64,000 nt of DNA, from NCBI GenBank assembly GCA_963662615.2, contig CAXXSR010000001.1, positions 960,001-1,024,000 of the forward strand, written 5' to 3'. This document shows, piece by piece, positions 18,819 to 22,803 of this stretch. Numbering within the stretch: the stretch's first letter is position 1; every line of letters starts with the position of its first letter. The translations under genes were made by a program, and so were the position numbers. Under the pieces are notes generated by a model. The model did no database searches. It was not told the origin of the DNA and saw only the letters and a program-made list of their open reading frames with translations. Origin of the DNA: Dehalococcoidia bacterium. Lineage in GTDB: Bacteria; Chloroflexota; Dehalococcoidia; Bin125.

Positions 18819-18839
18819 GTGCCACCCCTCCCCGCGGGG

Positions 18840-19121
18840 CTAGGTGAACGGCTCGTCTTCGTCCTCGGGGGCCAGATGCCAGAGCAGCCGGCATTCGTCA
18901 CAGGCCAGCGACGTGAGCAGGGAGGCGCCCTCTTCCACCTCTTCGTATTCCGGCTCCAGTTCGCTGCCGCAGTCCGGGCAAAGGGGGCGCAAGATGTAGT
19001 CGAAGTCGCCGCTGGTCACGGCGGTGCGATGCACCAGCGTGTCTACGTCCGCCCACTCCTCAAAAGGGACGGGGTGGACGGTGTACCCCTCGCGCGAAGT
19101 TCCTTGCTCCACGCTGCGCAT
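18840..19121 (-). CDS. small acidic zinc-ribbon protein
   Basis: CPDC and CDEC pairs; 93 aa; same strand as neighbours. Confidence 0.6.
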   Translation of the reverse strand: MRSVEQGTSREGYTVHPVPFEEWADVDTLVHRTAVTSGDFDYILRPLCPDCGSELEPEYEEVEEGASLLTSLACDECRLLWHLAPEDEDEPFT

Positions 19122-19310
19122 CCTAACTCAACACCGCTCCTGCAGGCCCGCGTCTGTCCGGCCCGCGTCTGTCCGGGCCGGCAGGCGCGGGCCGGAGAGA
19201 GGCCGTGACCGGCCGGATTCTTCCAGCGACGGAAGGATCCGGCCGGCCCGGCTGGAGCCGCGTCCCTCATCCGCAATCGAGAGGGGGGTAGGCAGGAAGA
19301 TGCGCTGCGA

Positions 19311-19586
19311 TCAGGCGGCGGAGCCCGCTCGCTTCGACTCGTCGTAGGCGGCCGCAACGCCCGGATCGTAGTAGGTCGTGCGACGGTCCGGCCGCCAAGC
19401 GGTCGCCGTGTCGACGAAGAGGTCGGAGTTGTTCGTGCGGTCGCGTCCGTCAAAGCGATTGCTGAAGCGCTTGCGCCTGCCGCACTTGCGGCATTCGCCC
19501 CAGCTCGTCGCTCCAGCGGGCGGGCGCACCGCCCAGTGGTGCTTGCAGCTCTTGGTTCGTGGCCGCGGCGTCGTCATCGTCACCAT
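19311..19586 (-). CDS. small CxHHW...CxxC zinc-ribbon protein, paralog of 458-616
   Basis: CKHHWAVRPPAGATSWGECRKCGRRKRFSN aligns without gaps to CTHHWQVDRPDSQYSAGTCAKCGMMKKFLN. Confidence 0.75.
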   Translation of the reverse strand: MVTMTTPRPRTKSCKHHWAVRPPAGATSWGECRKCGRRKRFSNRFDGRDRTNNSDLFVDTATAWRPDRRTTYYDPGVAAAYDESKRAGSAA

Positions 19587-19874
19587 ATGCGCTGTCCATC
19601 ACCACGCGTCGATCCGCAGGGGTCCGCCGTCAGGCGAACTCGGCTGGACGACACGGGGTAGAAAGGGAGATGAACGGCCTCGTGGAGTTCTGCGACCCGC
19701 CCCTAGCTTCGCGCGCGGGCGGATTGGGGTCAATCGTTGCGCAGCGACTTTTACGAGGGCTTAACGCGGGCTCACCGCGGTCCGCGCTCTCCTTGAAGAG
19801 CGGTGTGGAGCAACTATTTCATGCGCGTATCAAGCAGCGCCGCACGACAACCGCTGACGACGATCGCGTGCGCG

Positions 19875-20318
19875 CTAGCCGTCCGTCTCCGGCGCTTCTC
19901 CGGCGTGAGGACGCCCGACCAGCCGACCCACGAGGGGATGCCGGTAGTCCTCACCCCGGCGCACCGCGCGCGCGGCGCGCGTGGCCGCCAGGCCCTGCCC
20001 GAGGTAGTAGATGGCGAGGAACGGCGACGCGGTGAGCACCACGGCGAGGACGAGCGCGCCACCGTCGTAGCGGCCGTCCCATGCCAGCAGCGCCAGCGGC
20101 GCCACGACGGCCAGCACGATCAGCAGGAGATTGAGCACGATGATCTGGAAGAGCGACGACTGCAACGCTTGTAGCGCCACCCAGGGCGACGCGTGGAGGT
20201 TGCGGCTGTAGATCGCCACGGACGCGAACACACCCAACAAGGGAAGCAGGGCGAGCCAGGCGCTCAGATGGGCACGCGCCGCCTGCGCTCGTTCCTCCGG
20301 ACTGGCGATAGGCATCAT
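19875..20318 (-). CDS. DUF4870-like membrane protein
   Basis: EER..A..AHLS...ALQS..FQ...A...GEDYRHPLVG pattern. Confidence 0.8.
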   Translation of the reverse strand: MMPIASPEERAQAARAHLSAWLALLPLLGVFASVAIYSRNLHASPWVALQALQSSLFQIIVLNLLLIVLAVVAPLALLAWDGRYDGGALVLAVVLTASPFLAIYYLGQGLAATRAARAVRRGEDYRHPLVGRLVGRPHAGEAPETDG

Positions 20319-20565
20319 GCCGTTGCCGAGCGGGACGGCGTGCCTGCCGCCGCGGCGCGCCGCGCACTCACAGTCCGCCTCCCGCCGGGGTGGCCGCCCC
20401 GCTTAGGCGCACGCGTTCGCAAGGCCAGCTTCCTGACGGGCGACAAGCGCTCAGGCGCCACTAGTGCCGCAATCTTCGCTGAGGCGGTGGGCAGTATAGG
20501 CGCGGGCGCGGGCCCGGACCCGATCCGATCCGGTCGTGCGCCTCCAGCAGGGTGAGGACGGATGC

Positions 20566-20802
20566 GAGAGGGGTTAACCCACTGTAAATCTTGGCCGCAC
20601 CGCCGATGAGAGCGTTGCGACCCTGCCACGGCCCAACTACGTTGCGGAACAGTTGAGGGCGGGCCGACCCGGGAGAAACGGAGAAAGATCCGAATCGGCC
20701 CAGCCCTAGGGGAGGATGCGGGCCCGTCTTGGGGAGGCGGAGCCCGCCTCTCGAATCTTCGCACAGCTGTTCCGGCACTGCAATAAAGGGTCAACCTCTC
20801 TC
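20566..20802 (+). ncRNA. candidate structured non-coding RNA (~237 nt), family not recognised
   Basis: Closing stem 20566-20580/20788-20802, inner stem 20645-20655/20764-20774 and three hairpins; most G-U pairs favour the + strand. Confidence 0.5.
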
Positions 20803-21000
20803 TGGGAAATGGCTACGCCCCGGGGAGTCTCGGCCGTGGTCAGGGCCCCAGCGGGGAGCGGGGACCACCGCCGTGAGGCGCGTCCGACGGCCGCGGGCGC
20901 GATACCACGGACACAGTGCTGCGGACCCCTGCCATCCGGCACGTTCCCGCTGGGCGCAACCGGCCGATCGCGCCGCCGTCGCCGGATATACTCGATTCGT

Positions 21001-21543
21001 ATGGTGGGGAGTGCGGGACACGACCTGGGCGCGGCGGAGTCCGTTGAAGCGGAAGCGGTAGGCGTTCCGGGAGAGCGAACCTTCCGCATTCGCCTCCTTG
21101 CCGCCAACGCCTCGGCCTCACTGTGGCTTGAGAAGGAGCAGGTGCAGGCTCTCGCTACGGCGATCCAGCAGATTCTGGTCCAGCATCGCCAGCCCGGCGA
21201 GACGCGGCGGCCCCAGGCGCCCTCCCTGCAAGACTTTCCCCGCTATCCCACGCACGATTTCCGCGTAGGCCGGCTGGCGCTGGGCTTTGACGAAGGCGCG
21301 GACAATCTGGTCATCTACGCCACGGACATGGACGCCGAGGACCCGGGCCATCCCACGCTGCGTGTGACCTTCACGCGGCAGCAGGCCCGGCTCTTCTCGG
21401 CCCAGGCCGAAGCCACGGTGGCGGCGGGCCGCTCCCTGTGCCCCCTCTGCAAGGCGCCCCTGGACGAGCCGACGCATCTCTGCCCGCCCGCCAACGGCCA
21501 CTCGGAGGACGCGGTCGTCTGGCTGGGCCCGCCCGACCTCTAG
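21001..21543 (+). CDS. DUF3090 family protein
   Basis: AVGVPGERTF, LEKEQV..LA, FRVG.LALG.D, AAGR..CPLC..PLD...H.CP..NGH motifs. Confidence 0.85.
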   Translation: MVGSAGHDLGAAESVEAEAVGVPGERTFRIRLLAANASASLWLEKEQVQALATAIQQILVQHRQPGETRRPQAPSLQDFPRYPTHDFRVGRLALGFDEGADNLVIYATDMDAEDPGHPTLRVTFTRQQARLFSAQAEATVAAGRSLCPLCKAPLDEPTHLCPPANGHSEDAVVWLGPPDL

Positions 21544-21546
21544 CGC

Positions 21547-22803
21547 ATGCCAGATCACCCCAGCCCGCGCGCGTCGACGCGCCCTCCCCTGTGGACGCTC
21601 AACTATGCGCTGACCCTGCTGGGCACGTTCACGTTCTTCGGCAGCTTCTTCTATCTCCTCGCCGTCCTGCCGGACTACGTGGATGCCATTGGCGGCAGTG
21701 CCTGGCAGGTTGGCCTGATTGTCGGCGGCTTCGGCTTCGTCCCGCTCTTCCTGCGGCCGCTGTCCGGGCGCTGGAGCGACCGCGGCCGGCGCCTCCGCCT
21801 GATGCGGGTGGCGCTGCTGGTCTTCGCCGTCTCCCTGGGGCTGATGGCGTTGTCGGAGGACATCTGGTCCCTGCTGGCGCTGCGTGTCGTCCAGGGCATT
21901 GGCATGGCGATGTTCCCCACGGCGGCGGGGTCGCTGGTGGCGCAGAGCGTGCCACCGCCGCGACGCGGCGAGGGGCTGGGATTCTTCGGCATGTCCACCA
22001 GCGCGTCGCAAATGGTGTTCCCCGCGCTCGGCTTCGTCATCACCGACGTCTGGGGCTTCGACGCGGTCTTCTTGGTGGCGTCGGTGACGGCGGCCGCCAC
22101 GCTGCTGGTCGTCGCCTTCTTGCACGAACCGCAGCCCGATGCGTCGGGCGCAGCGACGCCGACGCGGACGCTGATCCCGACGAAAGCGCTCTTTCCCATG
22201 GTGATCTTCCTGACGGTCACCCTGGCCTTCTCCGCGACCGCAACCTTCTTACCGCTCTTGGGCGACGAGCGCGATCTGGGCAACGTGGGTCTGTTCTTCC
22301 TTGTCAGCGGCGCCGCGGCCCTCGTCATGCGGCCCACCGCGGGGCGCATGTCCGATCGCGTTGGACGGTTGCCGGTGATCCTGCCGGGGCTGGTTTTTAC
22401 CGCTGTCAGCATGTGGATCCTGACGCAGGCGGAGAGCTTTGGTCTCATGCTTGTGGCGGGCGGCTTTGCCGGGGCGGGGCTGGGGGCGACGCATACCGGC
22501 CTGTTCGCCCTTGCCATTGACCGCGTCCTATCGACCGAACGGGGCAGCGCCACCGCGGTCTTTCAGATGGCCTGGGATATCGGCGGGGTCTCCGGCGGCG
22601 TGCTGCTGGGCTTCGTCGCGCAGGCCCTCGATTTGGTCACCGTGTTCTGGGTCGCGGGGGCGTTTCTGCTCGTGGCCATCGCGCTGCTGCTGCCGGGCCG
22701 GATGCTGGGGTGGACGCGCCCGCTGCCGGGGGCGCACGTCGGTTTGGAAGGCGCCGTCGCGCCGGCCGGGGGCGCGCCGCCGGCGGGCCCGCACCGACAG
22801 TAG
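21547..22803 (+). CDS. MFS transporter
   Basis: About 12 TMs; G..SDR.GR motif A in both halves. Confidence 0.92.
   Translation: MPDHPSPRASTRPPLWTLNYALTLLGTFTFFGSFFYLLAVLPDYVDAIGGSAWQVGLIVGGFGFVPLFLRPLSGRWSDRGRRLRLMRVALLVFAVSLGLMALSEDIWSLLALRVVQGIGMAMFPTAAGSLVAQSVPPPRRGEGLGFFGMSTSASQMVFPALGFVITDVWGFDAVFLVASVTAAATLLVVAFLHEPQPDASGAATPTRTLIPTKALFPMVIFLTVTLAFSATATFLPLLGDERDLGNVGLFFLVSGAAALVMRPTAGRMSDRVGRLPVILPGLVFTAVSMWILTQAESFGLMLVAGGFAGAGLGATHTGLFALAIDRVLSTERGSATAVFQMAWDIGGVSGGVLLGFVAQALDLVTVFWVAGAFLLVAIALLLPGRMLGWTRPLPGAHVGLEGAVAPAGGAPPAGPHRQ

Follow-up and report, generated by a model that had tools for sequence, protein, structure and literature searches.

A single-copy element between divergent DUF4870 and DUF3090 genes

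The window, by which we mean the whole 64,000-nt stretch of DNA analyzed, derives from a source genome (G000) of 2.66 Mb in 2 contigs. The element described here lies within a 683-nt gap of the window that separates two divergent genes, DUF4870 on the minus strand and DUF3090 on the plus strand. These genes and the promoter boxes ascribed to them are as follows.

19875–20318, minus strand: gene for a DUF4870 (Tic20/MamF-like) membrane protein, left neighbor (Pfam PF09685, E = 3.4e-9)
20493–20498, minus strand: TATACT −10-like box between the element and DUF4870, read by eye, the putative DUF4870 promoter
20987–20992, plus strand: TATACT −10 box of DUF3090, a leaderless-type promoter read in the sequence, 8 nt before the ATG at 21001
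21001–21543, plus strand: DUF3090 gene, right neighbor (Pfam PF11290, 1.5e-34)
21547–22803, plus strand: MFS transporter gene, after DUF3090 (Pfam PF07690, 1.6e-53)

DUF3090 also matched TIGR03847, with a score under the cut-off of that model. ORFs inside the gap have no Pfam match, and the gaps among homologs are 1-nt indels, which agrees with an initial annotation that saw no credible ORF in the region. A small ORF starting at ATG 20716 was considered and rejected: it has no proper Shine-Dalgarno spacing, its frame is not maintained in relatives, and the genus g9 sequences have no ATG there. Beyond DUF4870, the roughly 1 kb that extends to the DAHP synthase gene (18819–19874) is likewise without a Pfam-supported ORF; it includes a 136-aa ORF (19043–19453) that belongs to no family.

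Regulatory RNAs in Chloroflexota are almost entirely undescribed, and metagenomes are the sole source for most members of this family. Relatives of the element were found by BLASTN in genomes of the same family, and a covariance model was then built from 7 sequences. This model found a single copy of the element in each of 12 among the 65 family genomes, comprising the source genus (g1) and genera g2 (2/3), g5 (1/1), g9 (7/7), and g10 (1/1). The same model did not find it in g6 (0/37), g7 (0/9), g3 (0/2), g4 (0/3), or g8 (0/1); g4 gave weak matches only, with filters off (10.0 and 7.5 bits), which were excluded from the counts and may represent a decayed relative. Across the class, 151 sampled genomes (G000 included) yielded two matches other than G000 itself: G008, which is a family member, and a partial match of 19.7 bits. 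A pattern scan of metagenomes returned six loci, of which five were confirmed; three of these score the same as G010 or G078, leaving two new sequences (L203 and L204). L205 and L123 were discarded as chance matches. The homolog set used below therefore comprises 14 sequences, 12 from family genomes and 2 from metagenomes. An earlier, looser pattern scan of genome contigs returned at least 118 stretches; among the 80 loci examined, three are true homologs by the model (L121, L133, and L128), with scores equal to those of G016, G079, and G080.

DUF4870 lies on one side of the element at 12 of 12 genome loci and DUF3090 on the other at 11 of 12, in constant orientation; the G078 locus has no DUF3090 within it. 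Among the family members searched, a DUF4870 ortholog is present in genera g1, g2, g4, g5, g9, and g10 only. The distance from the element to the DUF3090 ATG ranges from ~25 to 204 nt, and in G010, where a further gene separates the element from DUF4870, the element is nonetheless intact (140.8 bits). This extra minus-strand gene (L032, 540–1462), present also in L200 and L201, starts with MDRWRYFDITHRDH and in L032 has a TACCCT box 6 nt ahead of its ATG; we take it to be methyltransferase-like. In G000 itself there is one full-length copy of the element in 2.66 Mb, the next best match being 20 nt long (E = 0.089). The copy count thus gives a single syntenic copy, and the suggestion that the element is a MITE is essentially excluded.

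No known RNA family accounts for the element. Searches against Rfam 15 gave 0 matches across the 64-kb window at the gathering score, and 20300–21100 gave 0 on both strands even with E ≤ 10, so that the earlier proposal of a novel ncRNA has held up, together with the single-copy, syntenic occurrence and the covariation of two hairpins described below. Literature searches on DUF4870, DUF3090, and CsrA with Chloroflexi (for the last, titles and opening lines of abstracts among the papers listed) named no RNA element of this kind. A 6S/Ms1-like RNA had also been put forward, and there are points of likeness: the 237-nt fold drawn for G000 is of similar size to 6S RNA (RF00013) and Ms1, and the slot for an abundant RNA of this type is unassigned in the family. 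Unlike those RNAs, however, the element conserves two hairpins that are independent of each other, in place of a closed rod with a central bubble, its closing stem is not conserved, and it occurs in only 12 of 65 family genomes; the 6S reading is essentially excluded as well. The Rfam 6S model itself has no bearing on this question, since it seems blind in the family, RF00013 having matched nothing in G000 (E ≤ 1) or in the 65 family genomes (E ≤ 0.1). The 6S RNA of these genomes, if any, escapes that model in all 65.

Three DNA sequencing runs (X1, X2, and X6) contain the element stretch, and in X6 it carries a C>A change at 20745, in the 3′ arm of the second hairpin. A second contig of 1739 nt in X2 and X6 matches the first hairpin with a g2-like flank (window 20655–20687), which indicates that an element-bearing relative lives in the same samples. 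Run X7, which is RNA by guess only, gave 0 contigs on 19800–21600 and has no bearing on expression.

Two further observations concern the surroundings of DUF3090 in related genomes. At L036 (G023; 1845–2367) the DUF3090 match falls into two pieces in different frames (aa 7–162 and 162–180), which may reflect a frameshift or an assembly error. At L047–L055, L058, L062, and L063 (genera g3, g6, g7, and g8), a divergent ORF lies ~100–450 nt upstream of DUF3090 and has an in-frame TGA conserved at the same site (GTTCGTTCAACC as written on the plus strand); inspection by eye suggests a selenocysteine-containing thiol peroxidase or redoxin. G000 encodes a tRNA-SeC (C2:309606).

Two covarying hairpins flanked by promoter-like motifs

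Alignment of the homologs divides the element into two hairpins (hp1 and hp2) joined by a linker and three sets of conserved motifs outside them.

20572–20589, plus strand: B1, GGTTAACC-N4-GTAAAT, two similar hexamers 11 bp apart; GTAAAT (20584–20589) is invariant in alignment A7
20615–20620, plus strand: −35 box TTGCGA, of the form TTGC(G/C)n located 17/18 nt upstream of TAnnnT
20638–20643, plus strand: −10 box TACGTT, with its T, A, and final T invariant in A7
20657–20706, plus strand: hp1, a 15-nt loop (AGAAACGGAGAAAGA) on a stem of 16–17 bp; of its 17 pairs, 5 changed on both sides, with pairing in 94.1% of cells
20707–20717, plus strand: linker TAGGGGAGGAT; GGGGA(G/A)G in 8 sequences, different in six CsrA-lacking g9 genomes
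20718–20747, plus strand: hp2, a GC-rich hairpin carrying U(U/C)GGG at its apex; 95.1% pairing over the outer 6 pairs, 4 of which changed on both sides
20755–20797, either strand: B7–B9, a gapless conserved block of invariant alignment columns, A-N3-TCGCACA-N3-GYYCC-N7-xCxATxA-N2-GGTCAA

The region had been described as a ~237-nt highly structured RNA built from five stems. All five stems are present in the window at their proposed places, and the minimum free energy fold of 20560–20810 on the plus strand includes the outer closing stem, the inner stem, and both terminal hairpins. This 251-nt fold has an energy of −112.1 kcal/mol (z = −2.83, with 1 of 200 shuffles as good), while the minus-strand fold of the same 251 nt gives z = −3.49 with 0 of 200 shuffles as good. 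Only the two terminal hairpins, hp1 and hp2, are conserved among homologs. The 11-bp inner stem is paired in 53.9% of cells, compared with 35–51% in controls slid along the alignment, and the side hairpin in 44.3%, compared with 31–50%. The 15-bp closing stem, when homologs are compared by eye, is not kept as a pair of arms: the g2 sequences lack the 5′ arm motif, and six g9 genomes and G010 lack that of the 3′ arm. RNAalifold also proposed a helix enclosing hp2 (GGGGA/UUCCC), which was dropped, being unsupported across homologs. The described stems are therefore real in G000, but conserved structure spans only ~100 of the 237 nt. In place of a closed 237-nt fold, the region should be drawn as ~100 nt of structured RNA with promoter and control motifs on either side.

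In the 14-sequence alignment, hp1 and hp2 together comprise 25 pairs, with 93.4% of 348 cells paired and 10 pairs changed on both sides; these figures lean toward structure, since the homologs are related and were aligned to fit the model. None of 500 shuffles reached the observed values, and slid controls gave at most 2 double-changed pairs. Compensatory changes are plain in MAFFT alignments too, as in CCCGGG/CCCGG to CCCAGG/CCTGGG and GGGC.../...GCCC to GGGT.../...ACCC. The purine-rich core of the hp1 loop, AGAAACGG, is invariant in 14 of 14 homologs. We conclude that the element is real, conserved, and structured, being limited to five genera of one Chloroflexota family, and, from these comparisons, that the locus probably encodes a structured RNA. 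With ~100 nt of covarying structure, an invariant loop, and recognizable promoters, it makes a compact and well-defined candidate.

Ahead of hp1, an arrangement GTAAAT-25/26-TTGC(G/C)n-17/18-TAnnnT is found in 10 of 14 homologs, its spacers being variable in sequence; the B1/−35/−10 set is missing in the other four (G016, L204, G010, and L203), the g2 sequences among them. The −35/−10 pattern occurs only 231 times in 5.32 Mb (both strands of G000), and it matches the tRNA promoters of this genome, which have the form TTGACC-17/18-TAnnnT, often with TGG. A plus-strand transcript would be predicted to start near 20649–20652, a few bases before hp1, and B1 may be an upstream activator or UP-like site of this promoter. 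We considered GTAAATC.TGG as a wider motif and set it aside, as the other three copies in G000, two of which are the exact 11-mer GTAAATCTTGG, share nothing more with the element. Reading the hairpin followed by AUUUAC on the minus strand as a terminator was also abandoned, because the fixed 25/26-nt spacing from B1 to the −35 box explains it equally well. As a separate observation, GCCGATGA (20602–20609) has exactly the sequence of the sigma-28-like −10 box that precedes the flagellin gene in G000; the box is present in G000 only, and a TAAA lies 13 nt upstream of it (window 20586–20609), where flagellin genes have 15–16 nt.

On the other side of the hairpins, the B7–B9 block read on the minus strand takes the form T(T/G)Gnnn-14-TGC-GAnnnT, that is, a −35 box and an extended −10 box, in 14 of 14 homologs. 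The base of hp2 lies 6–8 nt downstream of this motif, and the full pattern including the hairpin start is matched in 13 of 14; in G009 the promoter part is present with a different hairpin start, as judged by eye. The promoter-like pattern has 55 sites in G000. The two promoter-like motifs thus face each other across hp1 and hp2. B7–B8 is partly retained in genus g4, where the hairpins are not. Other assignments of B7–B9 were tried and rejected by eye: a sigma-54 site fails on its GG-N10-GC spacing in three sequences, an ECF-type promoter on the lack of a conserved −10 to accompany GGAAC, and a plus-strand promoter on −10 candidates that lack the final T in 12 of 14. TCGCACA-N3-GYYCC as a regulon site was likewise discarded, with 3 occurrences in G000, about chance level.

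Candidate transcripts on the plus and minus strands

It is somewhat less than an even chance, in our estimate, that the element is an independent sRNA gene on the plus strand; the somewhat fuller proposal, that this RNA acts in trans and possibly serves as a CsrA decoy, is offered tentatively. Transcription would begin near 20650 from a sigma-70-type promoter belonging to the element itself, probably controlled through the fixed-distance upstream motif B1. The RNA would span hp1 and hp2 and measure ~100–115 nt if hp2 and the pyrimidine-rich tail behind it end the transcript. It would then act through the invariant, purine-rich, Shine-Dalgarno-like hp1 loop GGAGAAACGGAGAAAG and the linker GGGGAGGA, offering GGA motifs as a decoy to an RNA-binding protein, most likely CsrA. 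Of the generic marks of an sRNA gene, which are a promoter of its own, conserved structure, no ORF, and a detectable transcript, the element shows promoter motifs and conserved structure, and the region has no Pfam-supported ORF. The plus strand is favored by its canonical promoter with a fixed upstream motif and by the purine- and A-rich character of the unpaired parts. Counting against this model are the 4 of 14 homologs without the B1/−35/−10 set, the minus-strand promoter-like block, which is present in 14 of 14 and which the model leaves unexplained, and the absence of a U run directly after hp2. Neither the wobble counts (G-U in 16 cells and A-C in 12) nor the fold energies, which are similar on both strands, pick a strand.

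A functional RNA on the minus strand is unlikely in our assessment. Such an RNA would start at the base of hp2 from the B7/B8 extended −10 box, and would be either the 5′ leader of DUF4870 or an sRNA whose C/U-rich loop CUUUCUCCGUUUCUCC pairs with ribosome-binding sites; hp2 would possibly be its 5′ hairpin, just as it is possibly the terminator of a plus-strand RNA. The promoter-like block is found even in those homologs where the plus-strand promoter is missing, its pattern is rare in G000, and hp2 follows at a nearly constant distance in all homologs if G009 is included by eye. GAnnnT −10 boxes are used elsewhere in G000, for example GATACT before a tRNA-Leu, and the minus strand folds slightly better. 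Moreover, the element is confined to genera having a DUF4870 ortholog (g4 has the ortholog without the element) and keeps a constant orientation to that gene, and in six g9 genomes no other TAnnnT box is seen by eye before DUF4870.

The minus-strand reading in turn leaves the canonical plus-strand promoter with its fixed-distance B1 (10 of 14) unexplained. The G at the first −10 position in 14 of 14 homologs is unlike most tRNA promoters seen in G000, and B7–B9 has more invariant positions than a plain promoter needs. Also against this reading are the TATACT box that lies, by eye, between the element and DUF4870 in six homologs (the window, G004, G016, G078, L203, and L204), and the gene that separates the two in G010 while the element stays intact.

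For the sRNA version, the relevant comparison is to base-pairing sRNAs with C-rich loops such as 6C and RsaE/RoxS, in which C/U-rich stretches left unpaired are complementary to ribosome-binding sites. The element, if read on the minus strand, resembles these in its length of ~100 nt, its two stem-loops, and its C/U-rich unpaired segments; it differs in having no Rfam match, in its phylum, and in that the minus-strand RNA is only predicted. The hp1 loop resembles a ribosome-binding site, and GGAGAAACGG, the complement of the minus-strand loop, has 6 other copies in G000. Two of these lie 2–3 nt before a frame-opening ATG, and a third directly abuts an ATG. Of the two opened frames, one looks by eye like that of a nucleoside diphosphate kinase.

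It is also conceivable, if quite unlikely, that both strands are transcribed. Convergent promoters ~100 bp apart would then produce a fully complementary sense/antisense pair over hp1–hp2, in which either RNA could be the cis-antisense regulator, the plus-strand RNA acting on the minus-strand RNA or on the DUF4870 leader or the other way around. Both hairpins would then do double duty, as a 5′ stem in one transcript and a terminator in its partner. The facing arrangement of two conserved promoter-like motifs is what such a pair would call for. G-U pairs are rare within hp1 and hp2 (8 of 348 cells), and G-U exceptions are balanced by A-C ones, a pattern to be expected where both strands have to fold, although high G+C and stable stems could alone account for the scarcity of G-U pairs; the absence of the plus-strand promoter in 4 of 14 homologs also counts against this arrangement. 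A cis-encoded sRNA with an antisense antagonist has been described in Campylobacter (PMC8687705). The element is like that pair in having two promoter-like motifs that face each other around a short structured region; it is unlike it in being known from sequence alone, with its two strands transcribed only by prediction. Were the convergent-promoter reading true, the locus would offer a clean natural sense/antisense RNA pair.

Very unlikely, in our view, is a control region that functions solely as DNA, with promoters and factor-binding sites between the divergent genes and the hairpins as incidental inverted repeats. B1, the −35 and −10 boxes, and B7–B9 do resemble DNA motifs in their behavior, since their spacing is fixed and the sequence between them varies. 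Against this stand the 10 base pairs that change on both sides with pairing kept, since protein-binding palindromes keep their sequence rather than their pairing.

The weakest of the transcript models is a cis-acting leader of the DUF3090-MFS operon, a riboswitch or attenuator in which hp2 would be the attenuator. A large cis-regulator of this operon had been among the initial proposals, and at 11 of 12 loci the element does point the same way as DUF3090, with a plus-strand promoter upstream of it. We nevertheless regard it as highly improbable, because DUF3090 has a leaderless-type TATACT promoter of its own. In most genomes its ATG is preceded at 6–9 nt by a TATACT/TAnACT box, including at 15 loci of element-free genera, and no Shine-Dalgarno sequence is present where the box adjoins the ATG, so that a leadered DUF3090 transcript would translate poorly. 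The variable spacing between the element and the ATG, the retention of DUF3090-MFS in element-free genera, and the lack of conservation of the large closed fold all argue in the same direction.

CsrA and the hp1 loop

For the independent plus-strand sRNA, a role as a CsrA decoy is possible but doubtful, and the fullest version of it is more doubtful still: a ~100-nt Chloroflexota RNA, with GGA in the hp1 loop and the linker, would be the first CsrA-titrating sRNA outside Proteobacteria and would stand in for FliW in CsrA-bearing genomes without flagellar genes, while its GGA motifs would have decayed in the g9 lineage, from which CsrA was lost, another function of the AGAAACGG loop keeping the RNA. 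If the link were true, RNA antagonists of CsrA would have arisen outside Gammaproteobacteria, and CsrA control would be explained in genomes that have neither FliW nor flagella. If neither this link nor the convergent-promoter reading is true, the element still constitutes a new RNA family for RNA family libraries.

Of the 65 family genomes, 6 encode CsrA (PF02599), in each case together with the element, but these genomes are kin, so that the counts are not independent and may reflect one or two evolutionary events. The other 6 of the 12 element-bearing genomes, all of genus g9, lack CsrA; they keep the RNA locus, its promoter, and the AGAAACGG loop. In minimum free energy folds of the core, the CsrA-bearing genomes have 3, 3, 1, 1, 3, and 3 fully unpaired GGA motifs and the six CsrA-lacking g9 genomes 1, 1, 1, 0, 0, and 0. 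Total GGA motifs number 4–6 in the former versus 2–3 in the latter, which is few compared with known sponges. In the CsrA-lacking g9 genomes the linker reads GGGUGGC or GAACGGU. G078, which belongs to the same genus, has both CsrA and the GGA-rich form of the linker, and thus provides a contrast within the genus.

A published review (PMC7652899) identifies GGA in hairpin loops as the CsrA site and describes Csr sRNAs for Gammaproteobacteria. The element is like the CsrB/RsmX/Y/Z-type sRNAs in being small and non-coding, with a regulated-looking promoter that we predict to be its own, in presenting GGA in a hairpin loop and a single-stranded linker, and in its occurrence in 6 of 6 CsrA-bearing genomes. 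It has no sequence or model similarity to them, however, its host phylum is Chloroflexota, and it persists in six genomes without CsrA. Escherichia coli CsrB has 22 GGA sequences by the same review (PMC7652899), compared with 1–3 unpaired GGA in the element. The main site of the element is also unlike theirs, since hp1 presents a 15-nt loop on a very stable 16–17 bp stem rather than an ANGGAN hexaloop; hp1 is not a short hairpin loop of the ANGGAN type described in this review, and CsrA/RsmE binding is weakened by additional nucleotides in the loop and by very stable stems, as stated there (PMC7652899). The form of hp1 and the low number of unpaired GGA motifs therefore count against the decoy reading.

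FliW and flagellin are both encoded in 2 of the 6 CsrA genomes, G000 and G009. Four genomes thus apparently have CsrA without its usual partner FliW, three of them being 79–84% complete. In G000, csrA stands alone between unrelated genes. The G000 flagellin leader (C2:243060–243220) has a GGA-bearing hairpin loop and two GGA motifs adjoining the start codon; its hairpin, GCGGUG-AACGGAGAGAA-CACCGC, shares AACGGAGA with the hp1 loop. This leader resembles the CsrA-controlled flagellin (hag) leader of Bacillus subtilis, as described in the same review (PMC7652899), in having GGA in a hairpin loop and near the start codon. The flagellin leader of G009 has a layout similar to that of G000.
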